UHGV virus genome: UHGV-0033333
Origin: a virus
Reading direction: 5' to 3' (one strand)
DNA length: 41,497 nucleotides
The notes below the pieces were generated by a model. It made no database searches. It was not told where the DNA came from and saw only the letters and a list, made by a program, of their open reading frames with translations. Shown here piece after piece: positions 1 through 41,497 of the stretch (position 1 is its first letter; the number at the start of each line of letters is the position of its first letter). The translations under genes were made by a program, and so were the position numbers.

Positions 1-86
1 TTATTGATTATCGCAGTTGCAATGGGAGAAATAATAGCAGCAATTGCGAGGACAGCAGTAACTGTAATTGTTAGATCAATTTTCAC
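1..86 (-). CDS. 5' part of a membrane-protein gene that runs off the window start and continues in frame into 41191..41497 (gene spans the circular junction)
   Basis: Reverse complement of 84-100 gives AAAGGAG-7nt-GTG. ORF is open from 86 down to position 1 with no stop (VKIDLTITVTAVLAIAAIISPIATAIIN...). Codon phase matches ORF 41191..41472 if base 41497 is joined to base 1. Confidence 0.4.
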   Translation of the reverse strand, partial: MKIDLTITVTAVLAIAAIISPIATAIIN

Positions 87-103
87 AAGAAAACTCCTTT
101 CAT

Positions 104-195
104 AGTACTCGGACATGGCAGTGTCCTGTAACAAAAGAATAGGAGCGGAGGAAAAGAAAGTCAATATTTTTGTCAAAACAGAAGGAGGCGAGTTG
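104..195. promoter_or_regulatory. Conserved bidirectional cassette copy A: minus-strand promoter (-35 TTGACT 164-159, 17-nt spacer, -10 TATTCT 141-136), GGACAtggcagTGTCC palindrome 111-126, plus + strand RBS GAAGGAGGCGAG
   Basis: About 95% identical to 40318-40415 and clearly related to 39600-39693 and 40796-40866. Read directly from sequence. Confidence 0.55.
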
Positions 196-306
196 ATGAA
201 AGACAGAATAATATTCTTTCTTGAAGATGCCGCTATCCCTATCATTAGCGGTATCATAGGAAGTTTTATAGGGATGGGGATAGCGATGTGGTTAGGAATA
301 TTGTGA
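196..306 (+). CDS. 36-aa hydrophobic peptide (MKDRIIFFLEDAAIPIISGIIGSFIGMGIAMWLGIL)
   Basis: ATG 196 lies 7 nt after GGAGGCGAG. The track's ATG 115 start has no RBS. One predicted TM helix. Confidence 0.35.
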   Translation: MKDRIIFFLEDAAIPIISGIIGSFIGMGIAMWLGIL

Positions 307-324
307 TCAAAGAGAGGTGAAAAA

Positions 325-540
325 ATGGTAGAAGCATATAAGCCGCTGTATACAGCAAAGCAGACAGCTCAGATTCTGTTGGTAAATGTAGCCACTGTAT
401 ACGAGCTGATGAACAAGGGGCAGCTTCCGTATCTGATTCTTGGAAAAGGAAATGGAAGTAGGAAGGTTCGTGGAAGTGATCTGGAAAAATTCATTGAAAG
501 TCAGAAACCGGCAGAACCGCAGGGAGGCACAGAAGCATGA
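325..540 (+). CDS. Excisionase/Xis-like HTH DNA-binding protein (MerR/HTH_17-type)
   Basis: 71 aa with motif TAKQTAQILLVNVATVYELMNKGQLPYLILG; RBS AGAGGTGAAAAA. Confidence 0.55.
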   Translation: MVEAYKPLYTAKQTAQILLVNVATVYELMNKGQLPYLILGKGNGSRKVRGSDLEKFIESQKPAEPQGGTEA

Positions 541-690
541 GAGATATAATTGATTCCATTCTGATCGGAGGCTGTGCAAGTTATCTTCCGTTCTGGATCT
601 GGGACAATGCGGGCGGTCAGATTGCCGGGGCACTGGCACTGATCGGAATAGTGTACATAGCAAGGAGGTGGAAAGCATGGACGAACTGAT
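538..690 (+). CDS. 50-aa small membrane protein, translationally coupled to xis (ATGA overlap)
   Basis: MRDIIDSILIGGCASYLPFWIWDNAGGQIAGALALIGIVYIARRWKAWTN. Not in track because under 60 aa. Confidence 0.3.
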
Positions 691-928
691 CAGACTGGAA
701 ATTGAGAACCGGGCACTCTGGAATGTGATCAACGAAGCCGGAAGGATCCTGGAAGACCCATGTACACATCATACGACAAAGGAAAAGAGGGCCAAAAATC
801 TTCTGAACAGGACAGGATACTACATAAACCGTTCCTGCAGGGAAGGGCAGGCATACGAATTCCAGAGCCAGAGATCAAAGAAGAGATTTCTTGAAGAAAT
901 AAAAACACTGACAGGAGCAGATAAATGA
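677..928 (+). CDS. Hypothetical early protein (83 aa)
   Basis: RBS GGAGGTGG precedes ATG 677 (MDELIRLEIENRALW...). Confidence 0.4.
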   Translation: MDELIRLEIENRALWNVINEAGRILEDPCTHHTTKEKRAKNLLNRTGYYINRSCREGQAYEFQSQRSKKRFLEEIKTLTGADK

Positions 929-1110
929 GACTGACAAGAAAGAATCCCAACGGATCCTACAGGATCCCCATGTGTACCCAGAAGACGATCCGCATGGAAT
1001 GGCAGCAGGAAGAATTAAATGTGTTTGGTGAAGTAGCCAACCTTTTGGGGGAATATGAAGATCTCGGGACACCGAAAGAATTAAGAGAACTTTTAAAACA
1101 AAAAAGGTGA
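925..1110 (+). CDS. Hypothetical early protein (61 aa)
   Basis: ATGA overlap with the previous ORF; basic C-terminus. Confidence 0.35.
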   Translation: MRLTRKNPNGSYRIPMCTQKTIRMEWQQEELNVFGEVANLLGEYEDLGTPKELRELLKQKR

Positions 1111-1296
1111 CCCGTGTACGGGAATACACGGGCCGGGTTGTGTCCTCACGACAATAATAATACATTATTATGATAGCATCTGGAGGGCATAGCGTCAAGA
1201 GATTACAGGAGAAATCCTGTAATTTCTTTTACCGAAAAACGGGGGAAAACCGCCGTATTAGGACTTGATTAAGATATTAAAGTTAGGACATACGCT
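1111..1296. repeat. Palindrome-rich intergenic region upstream of rep: putative replication origin (dso)
   Basis: CCCGTGTAcgggaaTACACGGG (1111-1132), ATAATAATacATTATTAT, TTACAGGAgaaaTCCTGTAA (~1204-1223) and CTTGATTAAGATA (1264-1276). Confidence 0.3.
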
Positions 1297-2064
1297 ATGG
1301 TAAACAGATTAGAATACAGCTTCCGGAAAAAAGAAATAATAGAGATTCGTGAGTACCATGATGGAAATTATGGAGCCCGTGGAAAAAAGAGGATAAAAAA
1401 GAAGAAGCCTACAGAAGAACAGATGCGTCTGGTGAATGCACAGAACAAAGCCATGAGGTGCAGACACAGGTTGTTGGAATACTTCACACCGGGGGATTGC
1501 TTCGGAACATGGACCTATGCCATGGGAAACCGTCCTCCTGATATGGCAGCAGCCCTGAACGATTTCCAGAAGGCTATCCGGAAGGTGAGGGCTGAATACA
1601 AGAAAAGAGGATATGAACTTTTCTGGATCCGGAATATCGAAAGAGGCACAAAGGGAGCCTGGCATATCCATTTTGTAGTGAATGAGATCGGTGATACGGC
1701 CAGCATCATGCAGAAAGCCTGGACAAAGGGAGGTACCTATTCCGTGGAGATCCGGAACGACCCGAAGATCTATGATGAGGATTTTACGAAACTGGCCGCC
1801 TACATGACGAAAGATGAGCATACCAGGGAGGAAAAGAAAGATGGAACCCTGGGAAAGCCCCGTCTGAAAGAGTCCAGTTACAACACAAGCCGGAACATGC
1901 CATTGAAAAAACCAAAAAAAGACATGCTGCTTCACTGGAAGAAGGAAGTAAAGCCAAGAAAAGGCTATTACATTTTATCTATCCATGAAGGCAGGAATCC
2001 TTTTACAGGGTACAAATACCGCCGTTATGTGATGGCGAGGATAAAAGTGAACAGGAGGATTTAA
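1297..2064 (+). CDS. HUH-motif rolling-circle replication initiator (Rep_1/pC194-like)
   Basis: WHIHFVV (HUH) and KLAAYMTKDEH (catalytic-Tyr motif similar to pC194 AKYSGKD); 255 aa with a basic C-terminus. Confidence 0.5.
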   Translation: MVNRLEYSFRKKEIIEIREYHDGNYGARGKKRIKKKKPTEEQMRLVNAQNKAMRCRHRLLEYFTPGDCFGTWTYAMGNRPPDMAAALNDFQKAIRKVRAEYKKRGYELFWIRNIERGTKGAWHIHFVVNEIGDTASIMQKAWTKGGTYSVEIRNDPKIYDEDFTKLAAYMTKDEHTREEKKDGTLGKPRLKESSYNTSRNMPLKKPKKDMLLHWKKEVKPRKGYYILSIHEGRNPFTGYKYRRYVMARIKVNRRI

Positions 2065-2463
2065 ATGAAACAGGTACATATATTCCTGATCACGTCAGCG
2101 AAATCACCGGGAAGGCAGAAAGAAGCCTGGTACCGGTACATACTGGTGTGTGACGGTAAGACTCTGGATCAGTGGGAATATGTAAAGGGTATTTCCGGAA
2201 ACCGGCTTATCATGGCATGCGCCATTGCGTCACTGAAAAGAATGACAAAACCGGCCATGATAACGATCCACACAGACAGTTATTACCTGACCAGCGGTCA
2301 TGGGAAACTGGCCAGATGGAAAGATGATGGGTGGAAGCGCCAGAACAAAAAAGAAGTGAAAAATGCAGACCTGTGGCAGCAGCTGGAAGCACTTATGAGA
2401 CCCCACGCAGTCCGCTTCAAAGTGGAGCCTATGGAAATGTATATGGAAAACCCGCCGCGCTGA
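2065..2463 (+). CDS. RNase H-like fold protein, probably catalytically inactive
   Basis: Aligns to E. coli RNase HI: MKQVHIF vs MLKQVEIF, and WKDDGWKRQNKKEVKNADLWQQL vs [23 protein letters not shown]. D10 and E48 are replaced and the H124/D134 tail is missing; only D70 (HTDS) is kept. Confidence 0.55.
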   Translation: MKQVHIFLITSAKSPGRQKEAWYRYILVCDGKTLDQWEYVKGISGNRLIMACAIASLKRMTKPAMITIHTDSYYLTSGHGKLARWKDDGWKRQNKKEVKNADLWQQLEALMRPHAVRFKVEPMEMYMENPPR

Positions 2464-2669
2464 AAGAAATCAACGTTTGTGGGACTTTCAACATGAAAAT
2501 GTGGATAAAAAGATGAAAGACACGTTCCCGCTGAAAGAAATCAAGCTTTTTGCCTGTGAAAAAGCAAAAACCGCAAACAAAATTTTGAATTTGTCCGCGA
2601 TTTTTGAAAAAAAATCCCGCGGCGCAGAAAGCTTTCACAGAAAAAACGTGTCCGCGAAGGGAGAAAATT
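2464..2669. repeat. Intergenic direct repeats (iteron-like)
   Basis: CTGAAAGAAATCAA occurs twice (2461, 2531). Several TCCGCG/CCGCG-containing repeats and an A-rich region. Confidence 0.3.
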
Positions 2670-3161
2670 ATGTTTGAAAAATTTGGAGAAATGAATTCGT
2701 GTGAAGAGATAAATGAACTGGCACAGAACCTGTTTAATGAAGGGGATCTGGACAGTGTACGTATCATGGCAAAAGAAAACGGGATTCCGAGAGATTTTGT
2801 GGAGATGTATCTGGAGGGAGTGATTCCAGAACTATGTGATCCTTTTACTGCGGCAACAGGAAAGCTGGATATGGAAAGCCGGGAGATGAAGCTGCAGGGC
2901 CTCATGTCAGACTGGGTAGAGTACATCAAAGGCATATGCATGGAATCAGACCTGATGGCACGCAAGGTCCGAATGAAGGGTAAGAGCCTGAAAGGCTGTA
3001 TGGCCGTGCTCTTAAAGTTTTCTTTTAATAACAGGGTGACTGTGGATAAGGAAATCGTCAAGGCGGCCGGGATCAGCAACGCAAAGGTCCAGTTTGGCAT
3101 TCCCGGGATGGCTGAGGCAAAAAAGATGATCAAAGAGTATTACCTGGGAGGCAGCAGATGA
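2670..3161 (+). CDS. PcfK-like protein (tentative)
   Basis: RBS GGGAGAAAATT precedes ATG 2670. 163 aa, immediately upstream of and coupled to a PcfJ-like gene. Confidence 0.35.
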   Translation: MFEKFGEMNSCEEINELAQNLFNEGDLDSVRIMAKENGIPRDFVEMYLEGVIPELCDPFTAATGKLDMESREMKLQGLMSDWVEYIKGICMESDLMARKVRMKGKSLKGCMAVLLKFSFNNRVTVDKEIVKAAGISNAKVQFGIPGMAEAKKMIKEYYLGGSR

Positions 3162-5275
3162 AGAAAAAAGAGATTGAAGGGATACCTTACCTGAAACTGA
3201 CTGCATTGAGCCAGAAGAAAGAAGCAAAGTATATCGGTGTGACTGCACTGAAAACAGTCGGCCATGAACAGCATTTTTTCCTGGAAGTATACCGGAATGA
3301 GGAAAACGCAAGGGATATCCCGGTGGTTCGCATTGTAACCACAAAGAAAGATTTTGGATCCTATTTTCCGGAAGAAGAAAAATGGACAAGACAGAAAATA
3401 CAGCCAGGCGGGGAATGTGAAAAACTGATCTGGTACAGCCGGGAAGATTCCGGGGGCTATTCTGGAATGCCAGAGAAAAATATCCTCCAGGGAGAAGAAG
3501 ACCTTGCACGGCTGAAAGCTTTTTATAAAGTTGCGCTCTGGAATGAAAAGCGGTGGTGGGAATATATCCTGAAACAGCAGGAAAACATTGTATGGACTGC
3601 CAGACGCAATGCAGAACAAAGAAAATATGAGCGCCGTCAGGAAGCACTTAATGAACGGATCCGGAATACAAAGAAACTACCGGAAAAAGCAATCCTGAAA
3701 AGGGCAGAAAAAACCAGCCTGGGGCGGACACACTATCTGTATTACAAAAAACACGGCAGCAGGGTACAGATTGCCTGCAGTAAATGCGGCGGGGTCATTG
3801 ATGCGAGATGGAGGCCGGGGGAATCATATGAAAGCCAGATCCAGAGCTGTATAGCCGAGCCGAAAGAAAGCCGGACAGGAACCTGCCCTATGTGTGGGAT
3901 ACAGGGAATCTATAAATGCCAGGGAAAAGTTAAAAGCAGCCATGGAAAAAGTATGTATATGTTCCTGGGACAGAAATACAAAGAAAAAGGAATGGTCGTT
4001 CGGTATCTGAAAATAGAAAAAGACTGGCATCTGGAACTGTGTCCTGGAGATAAAAGGCAGGAGATGCATGGCGCTTATGAAGAACTGTCTGGAGTTGAAA
4101 TTGCAAGGGTATATTTTGAACCGGGAAAAGAAATCCAGAAAGATTACCACAAGCGCAGCTGGTGTTCCGGGGAAGACTTCTGGGATGACTGCAACCTGTA
4201 TGGAACAGCCAATATTACGATCAATGCAGCACCGGTTATGGAAGAAACCTTTGAAGAGATAAAAGGAACCATCTTCCAGTACAGTGCGTTAAAAGAATAT
4301 GCGGCAGCAGTTGAAAATATAGACCTGGTTGAATATTTGAAAAAATATCAGAAAATGCCACAGATTGAATTTCTTGCAAAGGCTGGAATGACCGGAGTTA
4401 TACAGGAACTGCTTAATAACAATGAGAGTATTATCAAAAATAAAAATGCAAAAAACATAGATGGATTCCTGGGGATCAGGAGGGAAAGAGTGAAATACCT
4501 GGCTTCCAGAAATGGAAATCTGGATCTTTTAAAAGCAATGCAGGCAGAAAGAACACTGCAGAAAACGTGGACGGAGGAACAGCTGGAACAGCTGGCCGAA
4601 GCACACATGGACAAAAACAGGATCGGAATAGCAGCCAGGTATATGGGAATCCAGAAACTATTGAACCGGATCAAAAAGTATGCAGGCTGTGAATACGGTA
4701 CAGGCTGTAAAGCAGCAGGAGAGCGGATAAGACAGACAGCGATCACTTACACAGATTACCTGGGAATGAGGCTTTCCCTTGGTTACGATCTTAATAACAC
4801 GGTATACCAGTACCCTCGAGACCTTCAGGCAGAACATGACAGAATGATCTATGAAATGAACAAAGAAAAAATGGATAGACGTTTTGAAGAGGTAAAAAGG
4901 GCATATCCGGATATCAGGAAGAATTACCGTGATCTCCGGGAACGGTATTTTTATGAAGATGATATCTATCTGATCCGTCCGGCCAGATCCGCAGAGGAGA
5001 TCGTGGCAGAGGGAAGGATACTCCATCACTGTGTCGGAAGGGACTGTTATCTGAAAAAACATAATGATGGGAACAGTTTTATCCTGATGCTGCGGTTTAA
5101 AGATAGAGCAGAAACCCCGTACATTACTGTGGAGATTGACGGCTCAAAGCCACATATCATGCAGTGGTATGGATCACATGACAGAAAACCTGATGCAAAA
5201 AACATTCGGAAATGGCTGGACCAGTATATAGCCAGATTAAAGAAGAAACGGTCACTGCTGGCAAAAACTGCCTGA
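3158..5275 (+). CDS. PcfJ-like protein (705 aa) with zinc-ribbon cysteines
   Basis: C-terminal ILHHCVGRDCYLKKH...ITVEIDG motif; CxxC...CPMC cluster in the middle. The PcfK/PcfJ pairing recurs in Firmicutes plasmids and phages. Confidence 0.45.
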   Translation: MKKKEIEGIPYLKLTALSQKKEAKYIGVTALKTVGHEQHFFLEVYRNEENARDIPVVRIVTTKKDFGSYFPEEEKWTRQKIQPGGECEKLIWYSREDSGGYSGMPEKNILQGEEDLARLKAFYKVALWNEKRWWEYILKQQENIVWTARRNAEQRKYERRQEALNERIRNTKKLPEKAILKRAEKTSLGRTHYLYYKKHGSRVQIACSKCGGVIDARWRPGESYESQIQSCIAEPKESRTGTCPMCGIQGIYKCQGKVKSSHGKSMYMFLGQKYKEKGMVVRYLKIEKDWHLELCPGDKRQEMHGAYEELSGVEIARVYFEPGKEIQKDYHKRSWCSGEDFWDDCNLYGTANITINAAPVMEETFEEIKGTIFQYSALKEYAAAVENIDLVEYLKKYQKMPQIEFLAKAGMTGVIQELLNNNESIIKNKNAKNIDGFLGIRRERVKYLASRNGNLDLLKAMQAERTLQKTWTEEQLEQLAEAHMDKNRIGIAARYMGIQKLLNRIKKYAGCEYGTGCKAAGERIRQTAITYTDYLGMRLSLGYDLNNTVYQYPRDLQAEHDRMIYEMNKEKMDRRFEEVKRAYPDIRKNYRDLRERYFYEDDIYLIRPARSAEEIVAEGRILHHCVGRDCYLKKHNDGNSFILMLRFKDRAETPYITVEIDGSKPHIMQWYGSHDRKPDAKNIRKWLDQYIARLKKKRSLLAKTA

Positions 5276-5293
5276 ACCTGAAAGGAGAACTAT

Positions 5294-6538
5294 ATGGAAT
5301 ACGTACAGTTGAGTTTAGAAGATTATATCCAGTGTAAAAATGATATAAAAAATAACCTTGGGACTATCGTAAAGAGTTTTGTCCGGATTGGCTGGCAGCT
5401 GAGCCGGATTGATAAATCAGGGGCATATAAAAATGATGGCTACAATACAGTCGCCGAGTTTGCCAAGGCAGAATATGGCATGAGTGCCACTGGGACAAGC
5501 CGGTTCATCCGGGTATATGAAAAATATTCAGCTCCCGGGGATACTCCCGAATTAAGGGCAGAATACAGAGATTATAACCGTTCCCAGCTGGAAGAGATGC
5601 TGCAGATCCCGGAAGAAGACCATGAGCTGATCCGGCCGGAAGCACACAAAGAAGACATCAGGGAACTGAAACGGTTCAATGCAGAGAATGAATCGAATCC
5701 GGATAACCTGCTGGACTGGAAGACCGCCAAGACCACAGAAGAAAAGATCCAGGCTGTAGTATTTGAGTTCTGGCATGATAACAGGGAAATTCTGAATGTA
5801 CTTTATGGGGAAGAACATACACTGAAAGATATCGCAGAGATGATTTCCCCGTCTGGCAGCAGGAGTTACCGGAAGGGAACGGTATTCCTGATGTTTTATA
5901 GCCTGGAGGCAGGGATACTGGTGAAAGTGTTTGGTTCAGAACCGGAAAAAATGACATATCAGGAACTGGTTGAACGGACGAAGCAGATGTTTGATAAAAA
6001 GGCAGCAGGGAAACACACATGGGAGAATTATTTTTCTGAACAGGAGGAAGAAACACAGAACCATAGCGGTGAGGATACCGTGATGGAGACTGAAACAGAC
6101 AACCAGATACCGGGACAGGACAATATCCTGAACCACCCGGAATATATGCCGAAAACCGAAATTGCGCCGGCGCAAAAGACAGAGGAACAGAAATACAATG
6201 AGCAGCAGGCGAAGATTGACAGGAAAACAAGGGAAAAACTCCGGGAAAAGGAAGACCGGGAAAAAATGGAGCGCCTTCCTTCAGATGAACCTAAGAAAGT
6301 GAAACAGCTGAGAATGCCTTCGTCATATTACTATGATGTGCTGGAAGGAAGAATGCTTTTCTGGTTCTGCAAAAATGATAAATATCATACAGGAGACAGA
6401 ATGGATCTGATGGAATTTAAGGAAGGAAGACATACCGGACGGAGTATCCAGACAGAGATCACATACATATTTGATGATCACACCGGACTGGAGGACGGGT
6501 ACTGCATTCTGGGAATCAAAGTATTGGGTACTATCTAA
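5294..6538 (+). CDS. Hypothetical early protein (414 aa); N-terminal DUF3102-like/HTH-like region and acidic low-complexity middle
   Basis: RBS AAAGGAGAAC. N-terminus IGWQLSRID...TSRFIRVYEKY. Confidence 0.5.
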   Translation: MEYVQLSLEDYIQCKNDIKNNLGTIVKSFVRIGWQLSRIDKSGAYKNDGYNTVAEFAKAEYGMSATGTSRFIRVYEKYSAPGDTPELRAEYRDYNRSQLEEMLQIPEEDHELIRPEAHKEDIRELKRFNAENESNPDNLLDWKTAKTTEEKIQAVVFEFWHDNREILNVLYGEEHTLKDIAEMISPSGSRSYRKGTVFLMFYSLEAGILVKVFGSEPEKMTYQELVERTKQMFDKKAAGKHTWENYFSEQEEETQNHSGEDTVMETETDNQIPGQDNILNHPEYMPKTEIAPAQKTEEQKYNEQQAKIDRKTREKLREKEDREKMERLPSDEPKKVKQLRMPSSYYYDVLEGRMLFWFCKNDKYHTGDRMDLMEFKEGRHTGRSIQTEITYIFDDHTGLEDGYCILGIKVLGTI

Positions 6539-6956: not shown

Positions 6957-7112
6957 ATGGAAAACAAAACCTGTGCAACATGTATTGAGAACGATGATGG
7001 CCTGTGCGACCGCAAAGGGATCCTGATCCATGATGATGATACTTGTGAAAAACACAAAGAGAACTGGCGGGAAGTCATGCTGAGGCAGTTTAACAGAAGG
7101 ACGATGGGGTAA
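6957..7112 (+). CDS. 51-aa Cys-rich (CxxC...C...C) micro-protein
   Basis: RBS AGGAGGGACG precedes ATG 6957 (MENKTCATCIENDDGLCDRKGILIHDDDTCEKHKENW...). Confidence 0.3.
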   Translation: MENKTCATCIENDDGLCDRKGILIHDDDTCEKHKENWREVMLRQFNRRTMG

Positions 7113-7597
7113 TGATCAAAAGAGATGATATCACCAAGGAAGTGCTGGAAAGGTACCTGAACACGGATATGAGTCAGATGGATATAGCAGTTGCTCTGCA
7201 GGCGGCTCCGTCTACCATAGGGAGCTACATGAAAAAATACGGACTGACTAGGGAGAACAGAAGAAATAAAAAACAGAGTAATTACGATGAAGAGCGTATG
7301 AAGAAATATCTGGCTCAGGGAAGAACAAAAGAAGAAATCGCACAGCTGTTTGGAATAAGTGAAAGCACTGTGAACAGATGGGTAACCAGACATCATCTGG
7401 AAAGACCGGCTCAGAAACGGTCGAAACCAAAGAGATCACAGCCGGTTGAGGATAAAAGAAAGAAATGCTCAACCTGTATGTACAAAGAAGCATCAAAAAC
7501 AGCAGGAAACTGTGATTATCTGAGAAAAGTAGGACATAGCCGTGGCTGTCCTGTAATCGGCTGCACAGTATATAAACCTGCAGGGAGGAAGAAATAA
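7112..7597 (+). CDS. Transcriptional regulator with two HTH motifs and a C-terminal Cys cluster
   Basis: MSQMDIAVALQAAPSTIGSY and EEIAQLFGISESTVNRWV; C-terminus CSTCMY...CDYL...GCPVIGC. Confidence 0.45.
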   Translation: MIKRDDITKEVLERYLNTDMSQMDIAVALQAAPSTIGSYMKKYGLTRENRRNKKQSNYDEERMKKYLAQGRTKEEIAQLFGISESTVNRWVTRHHLERPAQKRSKPKRSQPVEDKRKKCSTCMYKEASKTAGNCDYLRKVGHSRGCPVIGCTVYKPAGRKK

Positions 7598-7598
7598 A

Positions 7599-7922
7599 AT
7601 GATTGAAGTATATGATATCAGAGATGCAGAAGATACAGAACCAAAGAAGTTGGATATAACACCGGAGCTGGCACTGGCAGCATATAACATACTGATCCAG
7701 TACTGCCGGCAGCAGGAGATTGAAGAAGGTTCCTGCAATGAATGTATTTTATGCAAGAACTGTCCGGGAATATCAGATCTGGTTCCTATGAACTGGGAAG
7801 AAATCCATTATCCCAGACTGACCGACAACACCATAGAGTACCTGAAAGACGGAAAGGTGCAGAAGATCACATACAATGAACACCAGGAGGCGGAGAAAGC
7901 GTTAAAGGAGATGAATACATGA
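7599..7922 (+). CDS. Hypothetical protein with CNECILCKNC motif
   Basis: RBS GGGAGGAAGAAATAAA; translationally coupled. Confidence 0.45.
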   Translation: MIEVYDIRDAEDTEPKKLDITPELALAAYNILIQYCRQQEIEEGSCNECILCKNCPGISDLVPMNWEEIHYPRLTDNTIEYLKDGKVQKITYNEHQEAEKALKEMNT

Positions 7923-8407
7923 CGAGACCTGAAATTACAACGGGATTATCATTAATGGTTGAAAAGAAAATCAACCCATATAACGATCCTCGCATATACT
8001 GGGCGAAAGAGGTTACGTTTGATTATTCTACAAATCATGCAGTTAGGGTGGATTACATGAAGTTTCTACCGGCGAACAATAGTGTTTCCGGGATAGAAAA
8101 AGGCGATTGCTATTGCTATGAGGTTAAATCCTCAGTTGAAGATTTTTACTCTGGTCATGGGTTGAACTTTATTGGCGATTATAACTACCTGGTTATGCCG
8201 ACAGATGTATATGCTGCGGTATCTCTTGAAATTCCGCATTATGTAGGAGTATATGTACCAGAAGCAAATAATCTTACATGTATTAAAAAAGCAAAGCGAA
8301 GAAATAGGACAAGACCTGTGTCCGAAATTCTTTTGATGATGTTCCGGTCTGCAAACAGAGATTATAGAAAAGCTACAAGAAAGTTAAAGGAGATGCAGGC
8401 ATGTTAG
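7919..8407 (+). CDS. PD-(D/E)XK nuclease-fold protein (MmcB-like), tentative
   Basis: D...EVK arrangement (VRVDYMKF...CYCYEVKSS). Confidence 0.35.
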   Translation: MTRPEITTGLSLMVEKKINPYNDPRIYWAKEVTFDYSTNHAVRVDYMKFLPANNSVSGIEKGDCYCYEVKSSVEDFYSGHGLNFIGDYNYLVMPTDVYAAVSLEIPHYVGVYVPEANNLTCIKKAKRRNRTRPVSEILLMMFRSANRDYRKATRKLKEMQAC

Positions 8408-8511: not shown

Positions 8512-8513
8512 CC

Positions 8514-33137: not shown

Positions 33138-33437
33138 ATGCAGACCTACACCATTGTCCTGCCTATAATCCTGGGGTATATCGTCTGGCTTCTGAAGAAC
33201 CAGAAAAAGGACCGGGACGCAAACAGCAAGGGAACCATGCTCCTGCTTCGTGTACAGCTGATCGAATATCACACAAAGTACATGAAAGAAGGGAGTATCC
33301 CATCGTATGCCTATGAGAACTTTAATGAGATGTACCAGGCATATCATGAGCTGGGCGGGAATAGTATGGTGACAAAAATGAAAAAAGAAATTGATGAATT
33401 GCATTTAAAGAAAAAGGAGAATGACCATGGATATTAA
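33138..33437 (+). CDS. N-terminally membrane-anchored protein preceding the holin
   Basis: One TM helix (IVLPIILGYIVWLL) then a soluble domain. Confidence 0.4.
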   Translation: MQTYTIVLPIILGYIVWLLKNQKKDRDANSKGTMLLLRVQLIEYHTKYMKEGSIPSYAYENFNEMYQAYHELGGNSMVTKMKKEIDELHLKKKENDHGY

Positions 33438-33759
33438 TGTAATGATGCAGTATGTAACCTATGGACTGGCACTGATCGGCGTGCTTGCCTTCCTGGTATC
33501 AGTTATTGTGCAGGTGATCAAAGAGATGCCGGGGCTTAAGAAAATCCCCACAAGTGTTGTGGCACTTGTTACATCATTGATCCTGTGCCCTGTAACGCTG
33601 GCGTTTCTGTGCGCATATTATAAAGTATCAATCACAGACTATTATATTTTTGCTTCTTTCGTTGCCGCATTTATTGTATATCTGGTTTCGACAGGCGGCT
33701 GGGAGAAGGTAAAATCCATCTGGGACAGAACAAAGTATAAAGATTCTGAGGGCGAGTGA
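33421..33759 (+). CDS. Holin (3 TM, charged C-terminus)
   Basis: TM segments at about residues 13-35, 44-66 and 75-97; C-terminus KVKSIWDRTKYKDSEGE. Directly upstream of the endolysin. Confidence 0.6.
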   Translation: MTMDINVMMQYVTYGLALIGVLAFLVSVIVQVIKEMPGLKKIPTSVVALVTSLILCPVTLAFLCAYYKVSITDYYIFASFVAAFIVYLVSTGGWEKVKSIWDRTKYKDSEGE

Positions 33760-33794: not shown

Positions 33795-35216
33795 ATGGAA
33801 ATCAAAGGCATTGATGTTTCTGCATGGCAGAAAAAGATTGACTGGAAAAAAGTGGCGGCCTATGGAATGGATTTTGCCATTATCCGGATCACGGAAGCGG
33901 GAAATGTGATCGACCCGTATTTTGAAGCTAACTACAAAGGCTGCATGGAAAATAAAATTCCTGTTGGCGTGTACCGGTATTCTTATGCAATGAACATAGC
34001 GGAGATACAGAGTGAAGCAAGGAAAATCGTCAGCATTCTGAATGGACGGAAGATCCAGTATCCGGTGTTCCTGGACCTGGAATATAATTCACAGCGCCGC
34101 CTTGGGACTGAGAGTATCCACAAGATGGCTGAGGCTTTCCGGGAGATCATTGTGGCAGCAGGCTATGAATTCGGAATTTATTGCAATGTGGACTGGTATA
34201 ACACAGTGATCTGTTCTCATCTGAAAAAATATGATTTCTGGATCGCCCGCTATCCCGCTAATGACAAGGGAGTTCTGGTGGAACGGCTCCGGCCGGATTT
34301 CGGAATTGGCTGGCAGTACAGCGGTAAGGCCGTGATCCCGGGTATTTCCGGAAAAGTAGACAGGAATGTGTTTTATAAGGATTACAGCAAAACAGAACCG
34401 AAGAAGGAGGAAACTACGATGGATAAGTTAAAAGAATTCACAGACCTTGGGGATTATTATGCCGGTGAAACGACAGGTATCCCATATCTGGAAAAGAAAT
34501 CAGCGGCATATCTGGACGATTTCCAGAAGAATGCCGGTTACAAAAATTATACAAAATTTGCCCGTGATGTAAACTCCTGGGGACAGCCGGGGTGTCAGGG
34601 GCAGCCATGGTGTGCCGTATACCAGTTCTGGAAACTGGTAAAAGTATTTGGCCTTGCAAAAGCCCTCCAGATCATGGGCGGTGGTTTCTACAACTGCCAG
34701 AGTGTTACACGACATGCACAGACAAAAGGGACCTGGAAGAAAACACCGAAGAAAGGTGCACTGATCATCTTCCGGAACGGCGCACATATTGGTTCTGTGC
34801 GGAAATTTGACACTACTTACGTATACACCAACGAAGGAAATACTTCCAGTGCTTCCGGAGTGATCGCCAACGGTGGCTCCTGCAGGAATAAGAAGTACAA
34901 ACTGACTTCAAGAGACATTGACGGTTATGTATGGATTGATTATGGAACGGGAACAGATCAGAAATCTACAGAGACAGCGAAGACTCTGAGTAAGACACCG
35001 AATTGGGTAGGAAAAGTCACCGCAACAGAACTGAATGTCCGTTCCTGGGCGGGCAAAGAGAATCCAACCATCAAGAAGTGGCCGCTTCTGAAGAAAGGAA
35101 ATCTGGTGGACGTGTGTGACATCATTAAAGCCGCAAACGGATCCGGTTGGTACTATATCCGGATTGCCGGTAAGTACTATGGATTTGTAGCAGCAACGTA
35201 TATCAAAAAACAGTAA
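33795..35216 (+). CDS. Endolysin: GH25 muramidase + CHAP/NlpC-like domain + SH3b
   Basis: GIDVSAWQKKIDWKKV...FAIIRITEAG (GH25). QPWCAVYQ...GALIIFRNGAHIGSV (Cys/His). C-terminal WYYIRIAGKYYGFVAATYI (SH3b). Confidence 0.8.
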   Translation: MEIKGIDVSAWQKKIDWKKVAAYGMDFAIIRITEAGNVIDPYFEANYKGCMENKIPVGVYRYSYAMNIAEIQSEARKIVSILNGRKIQYPVFLDLEYNSQRRLGTESIHKMAEAFREIIVAAGYEFGIYCNVDWYNTVICSHLKKYDFWIARYPANDKGVLVERLRPDFGIGWQYSGKAVIPGISGKVDRNVFYKDYSKTEPKKEETTMDKLKEFTDLGDYYAGETTGIPYLEKKSAAYLDDFQKNAGYKNYTKFARDVNSWGQPGCQGQPWCAVYQFWKLVKVFGLAKALQIMGGGFYNCQSVTRHAQTKGTWKKTPKKGALIIFRNGAHIGSVRKFDTTYVYTNEGNTSSASGVIANGGSCRNKKYKLTSRDIDGYVWIDYGTGTDQKSTETAKTLSKTPNWVGKVTATELNVRSWAGKENPTIKKWPLLKKGNLVDVCDIIKAANGSGWYYIRIAGKYYGFVAATYIKKQ

Positions 35217-35227: not shown

Positions 35228-35262
35228 AAAACCCCCGGAAGTCTCGCACACTTCCGGGGGGT
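35228..35262. terminator. Bidirectional intrinsic terminator CCCCCGGAAGTctcgcacACTTCCGGGGG
   Basis: 11-bp GC-rich stem; A5 upstream and T-containing tail downstream (T5 on the minus strand). Confidence 0.55.
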
Positions 35263-35357: not shown

Positions 35358-35386
35358 TATGACACCCTCATAAACTATGGTATAAT
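35358..35386 (+). promoter_or_regulatory. Extended -10 promoter (TGgTATAAT, 35378-35386) for the small peptide gene
   Basis: TG at 35378-35379, TATAAT at 35381-35386; TGACAC 15 nt upstream. Confidence 0.4.
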
Positions 35387-35411
35387 ACAGGACAATAAGC
35401 CCGGAGGTGAA

Positions 35412-35498
35412 ATGATGAAATATGTAGGATTATTTTTCATTATATTAGCTGGCAATATTGTAGCACATTATATCTGTAAATGGATTGATAAAAAGTAA
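35412..35498 (+). CDS. 28-aa hydrophobic peptide (MMKYVGLFFIILAGNIVAHYICKWIDKK), type I toxin-like architecture
   Basis: RBS GGAGGTGAAATG. Own promoter. Stem-loop CCCCGGCAGgtacccatCTGCCGGGG and T6 follow (35505-35550). Confidence 0.35.
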   Translation: MMKYVGLFFIILAGNIVAHYICKWIDKK

Positions 35499-35547
35499 AA
35501 AACTCCCCGGCAGGTACCCATCTGCCGGGGATATTGTATCACCTTTT

Positions 35548-35827
35548 TTGTCTACCATTTGTCTACCGTAGACAGAAATTCATATAATATAACAGGAAAT
35601 CACAGAACACGAAAACAAACATAAAACACCGATAAATGTTGATTTTAAAGCATTTTTAGGGTACAATAAAAAACCGTAGAATGCATAAAATTAACAAAAA
35701 CCTTTAAATGAAGTACATGGAAACGCTTGAATACTGATGCCGTATTTTAGCGGAATACAGGCATTTCGGACAATTAAATAATGAGGTTTGTCTACAAATT
35801 GTCTACCGTTTTTTCAGCGGTAGACAA
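35548..35827. other. Candidate attP: two clusters of TTGTCTACC integrase-type repeats flanking an AT-rich core
   Basis: TTGTCTACC at 35548-35556, 35559-35567 (with palindrome TGTCTACcGTAGACA), 35788-35796 (TTGTCTACA) and 35799-35807, plus inverted copy CGGTAGACAA at 35818-35827 overlapping the int stop. Confidence 0.45.
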
Positions 35828-37040
35828 TTTTTGCTGTAGCTGCTTCAAAAAGTTCCACTGCCTGGTTCTGCATTTTCTCCGTATTGGTTATGTAACGTTC
35901 GATGGTTGTCTTGATATTCTTATGGCCCAGGCGCTCCATGATTGCCTTAGGAGAAGCTCCGCTTTCTGCCAGAATAGTTCCATGTGTATGTCTCAGACAG
36001 TGTGCATGGAAATTTTCATAACCAAGCTTTTTCTTTATAATCCGGACACAATATTTCATGCTTTCATTATTTAACATTTCTCCATTTTCTTTTGCGATAG
36101 GCCATACTTCCGTATATCCTTCAGGAGCATTCTGATTAGCAGGAAGCCAGTGCAGATAAGATCTCTGGTCCACGTAAGTCTTTGTGTAATATTCTCCATA
36201 ACGTAACCGGTTCATTTTCATAACAGTAAGCTCTGACTTCAATAAGGATTCCAGAGTAGCACCGATTTTGATGGTGCGGAAGGAATCATATTTGGGGTTC
36301 TTGTAATACCATTTCTTATCCAGGTCTTTCTGCAGCTGTCTCTTTACTGAAAGAGTATGATTTTTAAAATCAATGTCGTGCATCAGATCAAGACCAAAAC
36401 ATTCCCCGATCCGCAGTCCGGTATAATAACAGATCATCAGAGGTAGATAGTAGTGCGTGCCATTAAAATGATTACGGATATCCTCCCACTCTTTTCCTAC
36501 ACAGACATATTCCATATGCGCCTTTGTTTCCGGATTAACCGCAACCTTTGGTACTAGGGTGAGTGAGCAGGGATTAGTCTTCAGGTACTGACAGGGATAT
36601 ATGGCGTATTTCAACGCACCGGACAAAATGCCACGGAAGTTAGCCATGCTCTGTGCAGAGAGGTCTTTTTCGTTCTTGAGACTGTCAATCCATTGCTGAA
36701 TGGCAGCAGGCGTAAGTGAGGCAAGCTTATAATGTCCAAGAGCCGGTTTGATATGTAGCTTGATAGCCGATTCATAGGCATCATAGGTATTGTCTGTACA
36801 GTTGGTTTTTACATAGCTCTGCATCCAGAAATCCAGATAATCAGACAGCGACATCTCAGATGGCCGAAACACAGTTCCTGCATTGTCATATTCAGCCTTT
36901 GCTTTAGTTCCTGCAGCAATAGCATCTGCCTTTGTCCGGAAGCCTCCTTTTGAAATAGATTTCCGTTTCCCGTCTACTCTGGCACATTCAAAACTGTATT
37001 CCCATGATTTTCCACGTTTTTTGGTTCTTAATTCGCCCAT
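35814..37040 (-). CDS. int: Tyrosine integrase
   Basis: HCLRHTHGT...LGHKNIKTTIERYIT catalytic region. RBS AAGGAAGGTGA precedes ATG at 37040 (MGELRTKKRGKSWEY...). Confidence 0.85.
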   Translation of the reverse strand: MGELRTKKRGKSWEYSFECARVDGKRKSISKGGFRTKADAIAAGTKAKAEYDNAGTVFRPSEMSLSDYLDFWMQSYVKTNCTDNTYDAYESAIKLHIKPALGHYKLASLTPAAIQQWIDSLKNEKDLSAQSMANFRGILSGALKYAIYPCQYLKTNPCSLTLVPKVAVNPETKAHMEYVCVGKEWEDIRNHFNGTHYYLPLMICYYTGLRIGECFGLDLMHDIDFKNHTLSVKRQLQKDLDKKWYYKNPKYDSFRTIKIGATLESLLKSELTVMKMNRLRYGEYYTKTYVDQRSYLHWLPANQNAPEGYTEVWPIAKENGEMLNNESMKYCVRIIKKKLGYENFHAHCLRHTHGTILAESGASPKAIMERLGHKNIKTTIERYITNTEKMQNQAVELFEAATAKIVYR

Positions 37041-37204: not shown

Positions 37205-37241
37205 GAAATAAAAAAGGTGCTGCCATAATGACAACACCTTT
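37205..37241 (-). terminator. Minus-strand intrinsic terminator (AAAGGTG...CACCTTT + T-run) between the immunity operon and int
   Basis: 7-bp stem; minus strand reads CACCTTTTTTATTT. Confidence 0.45.
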
Positions 37242-37249: not shown

Positions 37250-37334
37250 CCTAAGTAACAAGATGGGCGGCGTATCCATCATCTCAGGTACTCTTGCGAG
37301 TGTGTCGGGAGCCTTTCCGACCTTTGTTACTTAG
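37250..37334 (-). other. 85-nt structured element: 11/12-bp closing stem (CCTAAGTAACAA / TTGTTACTTAG) enclosing internal hairpins
   Basis: Inner hairpin GTCGGgagcctttCCGAC; starts right after the stop of ORF 37338..37520. Confidence 0.35.
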
Positions 37335-37337: not shown

Positions 37338-37758
37338 TTAATCTATGCCATCATTATAAGAAAATATTCTCTGTTTGTCAAATTTTTTTAACCGACCATT
37401 TTCTATTCCATGCTGTAGTTTTCCGGGCGTAATAGTGTGTAGAGTGGCAACGTAGAGATAATCTGCGGCTATGTCAAGCTTTATTCCTATTTGTACATTT
37501 TCACTCATTATCTTAACCAATTCAAAAACTTGTTCCTTTTTCGTTTGGATTCACACCGATATAATCGGGATCTTCAACAATAGAAGACAGAAAAGATAAA
37601 TACGGGAGACATTCAGGGTGTCTTTTCTCAATGTGCTTCTGCAAACCTTCTGACTGATAAATGAAATCATGATTCAAAGGCGTTGGAAGATAATTATTAA
37701 ATTGTGGATTGAATGGAGCGGCTATAAATACTTTTGATTTCATTTTTATTCCCAGCAA
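37338..37758 (-). pseudogene. Two adjacent small ORFs (78 aa and 60 aa) offset by 1 nt: possible frameshifted single gene or recoding site
   Basis: TGA at 37522-37524 is followed by in-line ORF 37338..37520, which starts only at TTG with no RBS. Upstream part contains HIEKRHPE. Confidence 0.25.
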
Positions 37759-38196
37759 TTAGTCTGATAATTTGAGTTGCAAAAGTTTCTGGTGATATCC
37801 AGTCATTCTGGATATCTGTTCAATAGTAAATTCTCTGTATTCCTCAAAGAATGAATCAGGAAGCAGTAATTCCATAGCAAATTTGTTGGCTTCGATTTCC
37901 TTCTTGGAATTTAACAAAAGTGTTTTGTTACGGATAAAATAACAATTTTCCTTCCGGTGCAGGATAGCATGTCCGAGTTCATGAGCCATGACCAGACGCA
38001 TCTCATGTTCCGGAAGATTCTGATTGATAAATATGTAGCGGTGATTTTTCAGGAACATATAACAGCCTTCAAATTGCAGATCACATATCTGGTATAAAAC
38101 ACCAAGCTGATCAGCAATAGCAAAAGGATCTGATGTTCCTGTTTTTCTTTTGTAGTAAGAAACAATCTTCTTGATATTACGATTCAAGTAATTCAC
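37759..38196 (-). CDS. ImmA/IrrE-family metallopeptidase (anti-repressor protease)
   Basis: HELGHAILH (HEXXH) motif; directly downstream of the XRE repressor. Confidence 0.8.
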   Translation of the reverse strand: MNYLNRNIKKIVSYYKRKTGTSDPFAIADQLGVLYQICDLQFEGCYMFLKNHRYIFINQNLPEHEMRLVMAHELGHAILHRKENCYFIRNKTLLLNSKKEIEANKFAMELLLPDSFFEEYREFTIEQISRMTGYHQKLLQLKLSD

Positions 38197-38610
38197 CTAC
38201 TCTTTGTATTTCTTAGGAGTGTACTTTTCTTTGTTAATGATCTTTAATCTCTTTAAAGCAATTTCCAGTTCATCACGGAAGAGCTCTGCAGCTTCCGGAC
38301 TCAATTCCTCACCATTATAACTTGCAGGTCCATCTTCGCCAGAGGTGAGCTTTTCCATGATGTTGTCCAGATCTTTTGAAATATCTTTATTATCTTTTTC
38401 AGATAAACCGTCTGCGTCAATTCCTTTTAATAGGTAATCAGTACTCACATCAAAATAGTTTGCAATTAACAAGAGTTTTTCTGCGCTTGGATTAGGATTC
38501 GATTTCCATTTTGAAATAGTACCCTTTCCAAACCCTAATTCTTTTTCTAAATCGGATTGGTTGATTCCTTTTTTATCACAAAGAGAGATTACTCTGTTGA
38601 ATAAATTCAT
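38197..38610 (-). CDS. XRE-family HTH repressor (ImmR/CI-like)
   Basis: N-terminal HTH (QSDLEKELGFGKGTISKWKSN); acidic linker; divergent from cro. Confidence 0.8.
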   Translation of the reverse strand: MNLFNRVISLCDKKGINQSDLEKELGFGKGTISKWKSNPNPSAEKLLLIANYFDVSTDYLLKGIDADGLSEKDNKDISKDLDNIMEKLTSGEDGPASYNGEELSPEAAELFRDELEIALKRLKIINKEKYTPKKYKE

Positions 38611-38643
38611 ATCAGTCCTTTCTGAAAAAATTCAACAAAAGGC

Positions 38644-38672
38644 TTGACAAATGATGAATATATTCATATAAT
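38644..38672 (+). promoter_or_regulatory. Rightward PR-like promoter TTGACA-17-TATAAT with 14-bp perfect palindromic operator ATGAATATATTCAT (38654-38667) in the spacer
   Basis: Exact consensus hexamers and spacing. Imperfect operator copies TGAATAAATTCA (38686-38697) and TGAATATTTTCA (38789-38800). Confidence 0.55.
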
Positions 38673-38750
38673 CATATCTAACAGATGAATAAATTCAACA
38701 AAAACCTTGTAAGATGAATTATTTCAATTTAAATTTGTTTGGTTACAGAT

Positions 38751-38779
38751 ATAATAGAATATTTTCATCGGAAAGTCAA
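38751..38779 (-). promoter_or_regulatory. Leftward promoter TTGACT-17-TATTAT toward immR, face-to-face with PR
   Basis: AGTCAA at 38774-38779 and ATAATA at 38751-38756 on the + strand; same GAAAGTCAATAT context as cassettes A-C. Confidence 0.45.
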
Positions 38780-38803
38780 TATAAATGTTGAATATTTTCA
38801 TCT

Positions 38804-39022
38804 ATGAAAGGAGGAACGAAGGTGATTTATGACAATATCCGAGCAATCTGCGATAAGAAAAATATTTCTATTAAGCAGGTGGAAAGAGAACTGGGGTTTT
38901 CAAACTCAAGTATTTGCAAATGGAATGAATGTGAGCCGAGTGTTTGGAAGGTGCAGAAAGTAGCAGATTATCTTGGTGTATCTATGGAATATCTGTTATC
39001 AGACCAGAAGGAGGCAAGTTGA
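38804..39022 (+). CDS. Cro-like XRE HTH protein
   Basis: IKQVERELGFSNSSICKWN. Likely real start is GTG 38822 (AAAGGAGG + 7 nt). Confidence 0.65.
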   Translation: MKGGTKVIYDNIRAICDKKNISIKQVERELGFSNSSICKWNECEPSVWKVQKVADYLGVSMEYLLSDQKEAS

Positions 39023-39585: not shown

Positions 39586-39599
39586 TTTGTTCTCCTTTC

Positions 39600-39693
39600 T
39601 TTTATTCAGACATGGCGGTGTCTCGTAATAAAAGAATAGGAGCGTAGTAGCAGAAAGTCAATATTTTTTATCAGACAAGAAGGAGGCGAGCTA
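39600..39693. promoter_or_regulatory. Conserved bidirectional cassette copy B
   Basis: AGACAtggcggTGTCT (39608-39623, covarying stem); -10 TATTCT (39638-39633); -35 TTGACT (39661-39656); + strand RBS GAAGGAGGCGAG. Confidence 0.55.
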
Positions 39694-40050: not shown

Positions 40051-40300
40051 CTTTGAAATTGGGCTTAATATCAGTCTTTTCTAAATCAATAATTCCATAG
40101 CTGTCAAGAAGCCGTAACGTAAGACCTGTTGCTAAAGAGACAGATGTGGTTGCGATTATAGAAGCAAGCTGAGATGAAATAACATTAATATCTTGGGAAA
40201 AATCAATTTGAGAAAGCATGGTCTCGATTTGCTTCGAATTAGAAGAAACCAGAGATAAGGTGTTATCCATAATAAATTGATTGAGTTCTTCAGATGTCAT
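40013..40300 (-). CDS. Hypothetical 95-aa protein
   Basis: Driven by cassette C promoter; 5' UTR carries the GGACAccaccaTGTCC hairpin. Confidence 0.5.
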   Translation of the reverse strand: MTSEELNQFIMDNTLSLVSSNSKQIETMLSQIDFSQDINVISSQLASIIATTSVSLATGLTLRLLDSYGIIDLEKTDIKPNFKVISGGLQNPEHT

Positions 40301-40317
40301 AAATTATCATATTCCTT

Positions 40318-40415
40318 TCGTAATATTCGGACATGGTGGTGTCCTGTAATACAAGAATAGGAGCGGAGGAAAAGAAAGTCAATATTTTTGTTAAAACAGA
40401 AGGAGGCGAGTTGAG
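40318..40415. promoter_or_regulatory. Conserved bidirectional cassette copy C (nearly identical to A)
   Basis: GGACAtggtggTGTCC (40329-40344); -10 TATTCT (40359-40354); -35 TTGACT (40382-40377); RBS GAAGGAGGCGAG. Confidence 0.55.
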
Positions 40416-40619
40416 ATGGAGTACAAGGAATGGGAAAAACAAAGAACTGCCGCACTGGAAGTATTCCGGGAATTTTTAAAAACACTTCCGAAAAAAGGCT
40501 TTACACTGCGGCAGATGGAAATGATCGGAAATGAAGCAAAAAATGAAGTTGAAAATGTCATTACCGATATTAAAGAAAAATTAGTGCTTACTGAAGATCT
40601 GACTGACCTTCTGAAATAG
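40416..40619 (+). CDS. Hypothetical 67-aa protein
   Basis: ATG follows GGAGGCGAGTTGAG; 3' overlap with the convergent minus-strand gene. Confidence 0.5.
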   Translation: MEYKEWEKQRTAALEVFREFLKTLPKKGFTLRQMEMIGNEAKNEVENVITDIKEKLVLTEDLTDLLK

Positions 40620-40773
40620 AATCACGGATTTTCTTCAGAAGTCTGCGATACAAAACAGCAAATTCAAAAGCATTATTTTCAGTAATTGCCTCACCACGAA
40701 GTTGATAGTCGTGAATTGCTGCCTGGATAGCGAGGTCATGAGCACGCTGTTCAATACTGATATCTTTGTACAT
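40588..40773 (-). CDS. Hypothetical 61-aa protein (start MYKDISIEQ...)
   Basis: AAAGGAG lies 8 nt before ATG 40773. The track's 40791 start lacks an RBS. Confidence 0.45.
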   Translation of the reverse strand: MYKDISIEQRAHDLAIQAAIHDYQLRGEAITENNAFEFAVLYRRLLKKIRDSISEGQSDLQ

Positions 40774-40795
40774 AAAAAAATCTCCTTTCATTTTA

Positions 40796-40866
40796 CTCGG
40801 ACATGGCAGTGCCCTGTAAGAAAAAGATAGGAGAATAATAAGTAAAAGTCAACCAGAACATAGCAA
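40796..40866. promoter_or_regulatory. Cassette copy D (diverged): GGACAtggcagTGCCC, -10 TATCTT, -35 TTGACT (40852-40847)
   Basis: Shares ACTCGGACATGGCAGTG with A and AAAAGTCAACCAGA with 35325-35340. Confidence 0.45.
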
Positions 40867-41063
40867 ATTACCTATTTGGTATAGAGAAAGGAGCATAGAG
40901 GGGTGAGAAAACATAAAAGAGTAAATACGATATCAATCTTCCTTTCAGCTCTCTTGTGTGCCCTACTTAGAGCAACCGGAAAGCTGGAAGGAAACTTCGA
41001 ATTTTCTCAGACATATATGCTGCTGTATTTGTGTATCAGAAGTGTTTTAAAACAGGAGAAACA

Positions 41064-41228
41064 ATGACTAATTACATTATCTTGGCCAGTGTTTGGGTAG
41101 TTGCGCTGGTATGTTGGAGAATAATGAAAAAAATAGAACCTGAAATAGCAAGCGCTTATCTGGTATATGTCTTGATTATATGCATATTAGTTACAGCGTT
41201 TGGAGTAAGTTACTTATCTCAGGTTTAA
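41064..41228 (+). CDS. 54-aa two-TM membrane peptide (MTNYIILASVWVVALVCWRIMKK...)
   Basis: RBS AACAGGAGAAACA precedes ATG 41064. Confidence 0.4.
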   Translation: MTNYIILASVWVVALVCWRIMKKIEPEIASAYLVYVLIICILVTAFGVSYLSQV

Positions 41229-41497
41229 TTTGTTCAAGTAAAGCTGTGGCATTATCAAAATCTGAAATTATAATAGCAGAATTAATGTCAATCATAGTTT
41301 TGGCAAGATGATCAGGAGCGTAAGCAAGCGCGAGGAAATAATATTCACCGTAATCTTTTTGAGACGGACTGTCAGCATAGTGAATACATTTTCCTGTGTA
41401 TCTAAGGTACTTCTCAAAAATTGAACGAATGTAGTAAGTGGTATTTTCGAGATGCTTTTGTTCGAGTTCCATACGCTTAAGCTTAAGTTGATAACGA
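41191..41497 (-). CDS. 3' part of the junction-spanning gene (continues from 1..86); internal ATG at 41472
   Basis: Minus frame is open from 41497 to the stop at 41191. Codon phase is continuous with the window-start ORF when the ends are joined. Confidence 0.4.
   Translation of the reverse strand, partial: RYQLKLKRMELEQKHLENTTYYIRSIFEKYLRYTGKCIHYADSPSQKDYGEYYFLALAYAPDHLAKTMIDINSAIIISDFDNATALLEQIKPEISNLLQTL

Follow-up and report, generated by a model that had tools for sequence, protein, structure and literature searches.

The two ends of UHGV-0033333, a stretch of viral DNA of 41,497 nucleotides (the window, by which we mean this whole stretch), raise the question of whether they belong next to each other, that is, whether the window is a complete phage genome closed into a circle, and of what form of the phage such a circle would stand for. 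An earlier note on the same DNA had proposed an exact, gap-free circular molecule, in which one gene spans the linearization point and in which the phage attachment site (attP) and the integrase gene follow the lysis cassette. We favour, at a probability of about 90%, a reading in which the phage is a temperate, siphovirus-like one that infects Blautia (Lachnospiraceae) and has a long tail and a head of the HK97 type; the window is its complete genome unit, which was assembled as a cycle and opened at an arbitrary base within the gene of a small membrane protein.

Closure of the 41,497-bp unit

Contigs for comparison were collected by an exact-protein look-up with the HTH_17 gene at 325-540 in ENA and Logan assemblies. 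In BLAST alignments, contigs of three separate ENA samples follow the window without a gap through the join between bases 41497 and 1, in collinear order and at 99.2-100% identity (L002, with L011, from ERZ28615007, 100%; L007 from ERZ28614167, 99.2-100%; L008 from ERZ27287408, 99.98-100%). L002, L011 and L094 are three pieces of a single contig, scaffold_1564 of ERZ28615007, which is 41,552 bp long and carries the same 55 bases at both of its ends (window 7142-7196). Its unique length, 41,552 - 55, is 41,497 bp, the same as that of the window. A 55-base overlap is the typical residue left on a cycle by a de Bruijn assembler, and the position at which this contig was cut is crossed unbroken by four contigs from other samples (L093, L095, L096 and L098). 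Identity between scaffold_1564 and the window is 100% in all parts read, and the part of the window outside the three pieces (17923-23794) aligns with 0 mismatches to L195, from a third sample. An identical tape measure protein of 2,091 amino acids (aa) is found on 10 contigs. Because the join is crossed by contigs of other samples, because the 41,552-bp contig has 55-bp identical ends and because the unit has been assembled recurrently, the window is an exact, gap-free circular unit of 41,497 bp, as the earlier note had proposed. Its ends are arbitrary and without biological meaning. At the join itself, the reading frame is open and the contigs of the three samples run through.

The gene at the join provides a second line of evidence. 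The last 700 bases of the window were placed before its first 400 and translated in six frames. A minus-strand frame starting at GTG 86 stayed open through the join to a stop at 41191-41193, giving a protein of 130 aa; its ribosome-binding site (RBS), AAAGGAG, lies at 94-100 with a 7-nt spacer to the GTG. In 41191-41497, the remaining two minus-strand frames are interrupted by 15 and 3 stops, and at the minus-strand stop rate of 0.038 per codon the chance of 102 open codons is approximately 0.02. The protein has no match in Pfam but 98 database homologues, most of them 130-131 aa long and spanning residues 11-140 of the 140-aa version that public gene callers start at ATG 116. This modal family length (130 aa) favours GTG 86 over ATG 116 as the predicted start. 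Nine homologues that were aligned to the window protein share its hydrophobic N-terminal segment and the motif SPIATAIINNRYQ, and the asparagines N28 and N29 are invariant among them. Codon 29 (Asn) consists of window bases 2, 1 and 41497, and the loss or gain of one base at the join would therefore destroy the invariant motif. The phase-continuous frame from GTG 86 and its AAAGGAG RBS, both seen in the earlier note, are thus borne out by the 130-aa frame, by the homologues and by the invariant asparagine at the join. An in-frame ATG at 41472 offers a different reading, in which the frame across the join is a coincidence or an assembly artefact and the real gene is a 93-aa open reading frame (ORF) wholly inside the window. 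However, the N-terminal segment encoded by bases 1-86 is present in nearly all homologues, the join lies inside the invariant motif and three independent assemblies read through it. We rejected the 93-aa ORF on the homologue coverage and the motif, and consider this reading extremely improbable.

A family of intergenic cassettes, which the earlier note had placed on both sides of the junction, is also real. The cassette is 102 nt long and occurs in 4 copies on both sides of the join between 41497 and 1. Every copy contains the palindrome CGGACATGGnnGTGTCCTG (4 matches versus 0 expected) and a promoter-like TTGACT-17-TATTCT that points leftward, and provides an RBS to the gene on either side. 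In copy 1, next to the junction gene, the palindrome reads CGGACATGGCAGTGTCCTG (110-128) and the leftward promoter-like site lies at 164..136, while GAAGGAGG and ATG 196 serve a rightward gene for a 36-aa membrane peptide. Each cassette separates a leftward from a rightward small gene, and neighbouring gene pairs converge with a 3' overlap of 32-38 nt. Among the loci fetched, the cassette is found only in copies of the window phage, and it may be a shared operator for a regulator.

Attachment site, host and integration

The gene order endolysin, attP, int, immA, immR, cro is confirmed as the phage (attP) order and not the attL..attR order of a prophage, and the labels given to these genes in the earlier note are all correct by domain matches. 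That int and attP come after the lysis cassette also holds; that they do so directly does not, given that a terminator and a 28-aa ORF (35412-35498) intervene. This small ORF has a promoter-like ATGACA-16-TATAAT with a TG (35359-35386), a GGAGGTG RBS and a strong terminator (35504-35531). Its hydrophobic product has no match in Pfam, and the mini-gene (35359-35531) looks like a moron or a gene for a type I toxin-like peptide.

The octamer TTGTCTAC has 6 exact copies in the window versus 1.2 expected, and 5 of the 6 lie inside attP in two similarly built clusters that flank the core. The clusters are probably arm-type integrase sites, which would make attP approximately 280 bp long. The right (P') arm is conserved in the attL sites described below. 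Within the core, the perfect stretch is 26 bp long (35708-35733, ATGAAGTACATGGAAACGCTTGAATA). The integrase is a tyrosine recombinase with the catalytic residues R...HxxR...Y (PF00589, 79 bits versus a cut-off of 27); its translation contains GLRIGE, HCLRHTH, LGHKN and ERY, and its N-terminal Arm-DNA-bind_4 domain scores 28.1 bits versus a cut-off of 22.3. The 456-aa ORF that starts at an upstream GTG is probably too long, and the gene call in the relative L001 is 408 aa.

The integrated form is seen in L007 and L001, where genes for a YitT-family membrane protein and for a GGDEF_2/HTH_30 regulator of the PucR family are followed by phage DNA from window position 35705 into int. L007 is the attL of the window phage, and L001 that of a 96-97% identical relative. 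Hence, the phage integrates into the chromosome. In a GTDB genome search, the host PucR-family protein is 99% identical to that of uncultured Blautia UMGS1434 and 98% to that of B. intestinihominis, and by the record titles of these matches the host genus is Blautia. An empty site (attB) is present at the 3' end of the PucR-family gene in a Blautia metagenome-assembled genome (MAG), L014. The final 10 codons of this gene, with its stop (MKYMETLEY-stop), lie within the core, and the lysogen keeps the C-terminus of the host protein as it was, which is the classical way of entering the 3' end of a gene and restoring it. Of the mismatches that flank the 26 bp in the attL of L007, the left one is host-type and the right one phage-type; the crossover therefore took place within the 26 bp (35708-35733). 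Since the window has no tRNA genes, attP is not tRNA-derived.

The same site holds the remains of another phage. At the PucR-family gene in L013 (uncultured Blautia sp. UMGS1434), 2.1 kb of a related prophage remain (7057-9196), with an integrase fragment fused next to a full-length endolysin of 70% identity; imperfect direct repeats of the core, 33 bp long, lie at the two ends of the remnant. These repeats are the attL and attR of a decayed relative and show the expected attR architecture. For the window phage, the predicted attR is the window sequence ...AACAAAAACCTTTAA followed by ATGAAGTACATGGAAACGCTTGAATA and host TTGATCGCACG. L017, L020 and L037, too, have TTGTCTAC-type arm motifs directly after the same PucR-family gene; no integrase was detected downstream of attB in these three loci at E < 1e-10. 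The 3' end of the PucR-family gene thus appears to be a recurrent integration site for prophages or their remnants in several Blautia species. An exact-pattern scan found neither attP nor attR in JGI metagenomes, and the same kind of scan did not find the junction in IMG/VR; the window phage was found in ENA and Logan assemblies and not in JGI or IMG/VR.

Physical form of the circle

A temperate life cycle can be outlined from these elements. The integrase would bind the TTGTCTAC arms on both sides of the core and recombine attP with attB within the last 10 codons of the host gene, where the phage would provide a synonymous substitute 3' end that leaves the host protein unchanged. The XRE repressor would hold lysogeny and the ImmA-like M78 protease would release it, with excision possibly aided by the HTH_17 protein (325-540). 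The excised circle would then replicate by the Rep/RNase H/PcfJ module, and terminase, with the HNH endonuclease, would cut concatemers at a cos site close to 10,228 for packaging as linear DNA. Contigs in the attP form come from at least four or five samples (L002/L011, L008, L012 and L101), and the integrated form of the window phage comes from one (L007). This abundance of the attP form fits an inducible prophage with plentiful excised or replicating DNA, and we infer that attP-form contigs in bulk metagenomes are excised or replicating phage DNA, or virion DNA.

Some points weigh against this account. Contigs alone do not separate a monomer circle from a concatemer or a tandem prophage. 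No attR of this very phage was obtained: the five contigs that encode the identical endolysin are all in the attP form, and the sole contig available for this purpose from the sample of L007 ends inside the endolysin gene. As a result, the split host copy with core repeats that the earlier note had suggested searching for has been found as attL (L007), attB (L014) and the repeats of L013, and not as attR of the phage itself. The roles given to the arm sites, to the ImmA-like protease and to the HTH_17 protein as an excisionase (Xis) are drawn by analogy, and the cos position, which comes solely from the contig starts of relatives, is suggestive.

The first of these points leads to a reading in which the endolysin-attP-int junction comes from tandem prophages or concatemers that were collapsed into a cycle, with no monomer circle needed and the unit sequence unchanged. 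A de Bruijn-graph cycle with a 55-bp overlap would look alike for a circle and for tandem repeats, and the integrated form does exist (L007). However, the attP form occurs in at least four or five samples compared with a single contig of the integrated form, the excision, replication and packaging modules of the phage are intact, and concatemers are a normal stage of phage replication anyway; we regard this origin as unlikely. The predominance of attP-form contigs in bulk metagenomes, together with a replication initiator of the REP_ORF2-G2P family with PHROG 'rolling circle' relatives, could also be taken to mean that the phage is a phage-plasmid, kept as an extrachromosomal circle by the rolling-circle-type Rep and integrating only occasionally. 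Against this, a search of 72,556 plasmid records gave no match to Rep, whose relatives are in Lachnospiraceae phages, no partition genes are seen in the window, and the phage has a full integrase/attP apparatus and a documented attL, which makes such a lifestyle very unlikely. Of the three forms that the earlier note had offered, the excised temperate phage and the assembled circle are therefore retained, and the plasmid-like prophage is not, given the integrated form, the arm sites and a Rep without a plasmid match. A bolder combination, which we consider improbable, is a double life, with integration at the PucR-family gene and a long-lived extrachromosomal circle maintained by Rep/RNase H/PcfJ, in which the four-copy cassette and a skipping-rope RNA would belong to an undescribed circuit that controls genes active in the circular state. 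If true, it would account for the excess of attP-form over integrated contigs in gut metagenomes sequenced in bulk and not as viromes. The excised or replicating DNA of an inducible temperate phage, or its virion DNA, is the form that we favour.

Gene content, packaging and relatives

Gene assignments were made from precomputed Pfam hits for identical proteins and from PHROG scans (Table 1). The predicted gene set is that of a complete temperate siphovirus-type phage (Caudoviricetes). The packaging, head, tail and lysis set is present (TerS, TerL, portal, ClpP protease, HK97 capsid, neck, tail terminator, major tail, tape measure, Dit, Tal and endolysin), and the circular order is late genes, lysis, attP, int, immA/immR, cro, early and replication genes, HNH and terminase. 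Small proteins of the early region have no match in Pfam, and neither a helicase nor a primase was recognised in the replication module (1297-6538). The tape measure is very long for a 41-kb phage and implies a tail of approximately 300 nm. An 806-aa fibre-like protein has collagen-like Gly-X-Y repeats at 29732-29884 (36-nt repeat family D3). For the holin-like protein, public gene callers use the start at 33427, and the version from ATG 33421 has no record.

Table 1 Features of the window, in order of position (aa, amino acids; a point marks an element without strand)
Feature	Position	Strand	Remarks
Junction gene, 5' part	1..86	-	GTG 86 start; N-terminal hydrophobic, probably transmembrane, segment
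Cassette copy 1	95..196	.	divergent intergenic element; junction-gene RBS 94-100
HTH_17/excisionase-family DNA-binding protein	325-540	+	candidate Xis or early regulator
REP_ORF2-G2P replication initiator	1297-2064		rolling-circle-like
RNase H	2065-2463		
PcfJ-like protein	3158-5275		705 aa
DUF3850 protein	5294-6538		414 aa
55-base terminal overlap of scaffold_1564	7142..7196	.	assembler overlap, signals cycle; contig's own arbitrary cut, inside gene 7112-7597
Sigma70_r4/DUF1492-type transcriptional regulator	8715-9155		putative late function, from position
HNH endonuclease	9868-10173	+	PF01844
TerS	10265-10603	+	
TerL	10563-12248	+	
Portal	12264-13481		PF04860
ClpP-type protease	13478-14272		
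HK97-fold capsid	14269-15483		PF05065
Neck, tail terminator, major tail	16103-17404		
Tape measure	18299/18347-24622		2,091-2,107 aa
Dit	24622-25338		
Tal	25352-27622		
Three large fibre-like proteins	to 32810		
Holin-like small membrane protein	33427-33759		assigned by position and apparent hydrophobic segments
Endolysin	33795..35216	+	Glyco_hydro_25 and CHAP; last gene of late operon
Terminator-like hairpin	35232..35260	.	bidirectional, 3' of endolysin
28-aa hydrophobic ORF	35412..35498	+	MMKYVGLFFIILAGNIVAHYICKWIDKK; between endolysin terminator and attP
attP left (P) arm	35548..35575	.	TTGTCTAC twice direct and one imperfect inverted copy
attP core	35704..35738	.	35 bp, 2 mismatches to attB of Blautia MAG L014
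attP right (P') arm	35788..35827	.	TTGTCTAC twice direct and one inverted copy; overlaps integrase stop codon
Tyrosine integrase	35814..37040	-	408 aa from ATG; Arm-DNA-bind_4, SAM-like and catalytic domains
Skipping-rope RNA (Rfam RF02924)	37254..37331	-	74.4 bits versus gathering score 36.7
PBECR3-like small protein	37522-37758	-	
ImmA-like M78 metallopeptidase	37759..38196	-	HELGH motif
ImmR/CI-like XRE repressor	38197..38610	-	
Cro-like XRE protein	38804..39022	+	
Cassette copy 2	39592..39693	.	67% identical to copy 1
Cassette copy 3	40313..40414	.	92% identical to copy 1
Cassette copy 4	40783..40884	.	62% identical to copy 1
Junction gene, 3' part	41191..41497	-	last base of codon 29, codons 30-130, stop 41191-41193; homologues align here

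In the packaging region, the HNH gene lies directly upstream of TerS and TerL. Relatives in IMG/VR reach up to 88% TerL identity, and six of their contigs, from several metagenomes and in three sequence groups (L109/L110/L119, L121/L122 and L148), start at the base homologous to window position ~10228; L193 is a further locus of this set. This position falls in the HNH-TerS spacer (~10174-10264), right after the conserved GTGACCGGnGAGGGG, and one relative contig of 35,544 bp has a 25-bp terminal overlap at the homologue of ~10228. In the virion, the DNA is probably a linear molecule whose cos ends lie near 10,228, a position at which the lineage probably has its cos site. HK97-like cos phages with an HNH gene have the same order of HNH, TerS, TerL, portal, ClpP-type protease and HK97-fold capsid; for the window, the ends are a prediction from sequence.

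The divergent operator region of the lysogeny switch (38611-38803) contains two 32-nt repeats and consensus promoters. As in the ImmR/ImmA switch of ICEBs1, phi105 and many Firmicutes prophages, the XRE repressor gene is immediately upstream of a co-oriented gene for an M78 HEXXH peptidase, and a small Cro-like XRE gene points away from the pair. In contrast to these systems, the window has a PBECR3-like protein and the skipping-rope RNA between immA and int. The RNA has a perfect TTGACA-17-TATAAT promoter upstream (37381..37353), an intrinsic terminator downstream (37241..37213) and a fold z of -4.5, and it forms its own transcription unit between the integrase gene and the PBECR3-like/ImmA gene pair. 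According to Weinberg et al. (2017, PMC5737381), the skipping-rope motif is followed by a terminator, has an unknown function and is associated with a protein encoded nearby.

Integration resembles that of lambda-type systems in the N-terminal arm-binding domain of the integrase and in the arm repeats that flank a core common to attB, and it resembles that of other systems targeting gene 3' ends in that the core duplicates the end of the target gene and leaves the host ORF intact. In contrast to the lambda type, the window phage targets a PucR-family gene, and not a tRNA gene or the lambda attB, and has a long core (26 bp perfect, 35 bp imperfect). Lambda-type integration, the ImmR/ImmA switch and HK97/HNH packaging are each a textbook system.

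The closest cultured phage is phiCs5676-1 of [Clostridium] scindens (OR574845.1; 41,350 bp), with 43% protein identity in TerL and 47% in Rep. It is of the same size class and shares the circular order terminase, head, tail, lysis, integrase (-), repressor (-), cro (+), Rep, RNase H, two large proteins of unknown function and HNH. However, it has no nucleotide-level similarity to the window and its host belongs to another genus. It alone carries a helicase/PAPS-reductase/ParB block between the lysis genes and int, as well as a second integrase, and the tape measure gene of the window is almost twice the length of its own. The replication module is common to the two phages, and Rep is also found in Butyrivibrio phages. 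Among the nearer relatives, the early regions of L001, L003 and L004 are 96-97% identical to the window. L001 (5584-7176) has a SIR2_2-domain gene, likely for defence, between int and the M78 peptidase gene; L003 and L004 (2878-6439) have YqaJ/RecT/RusA in place of Rep/RNase H/PcfJ, with HicAB added. Such differences in cargo are typical mosaicism.

In a megablast search of 50,697 GenBank phage records, neither the 3-kb junction nor the stretch 10000-34000 had a match, and the phage is without a close deposited relative in that set. No concept is changed by the finding, and the correct call of closure comes as little surprise. The window can be used as a complete, correctly closed genome, in which the gene at the ends is to be annotated as a single 130-aa protein. 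To this are added a host, Blautia, an exact attP/attB pair at the 3' end of a PucR-family gene and a probable cos position. Given that few gut Lachnospiraceae phages have been cultured, a complete genome found in at least 10 assemblies, with its host and its integration site, is a useful reference.

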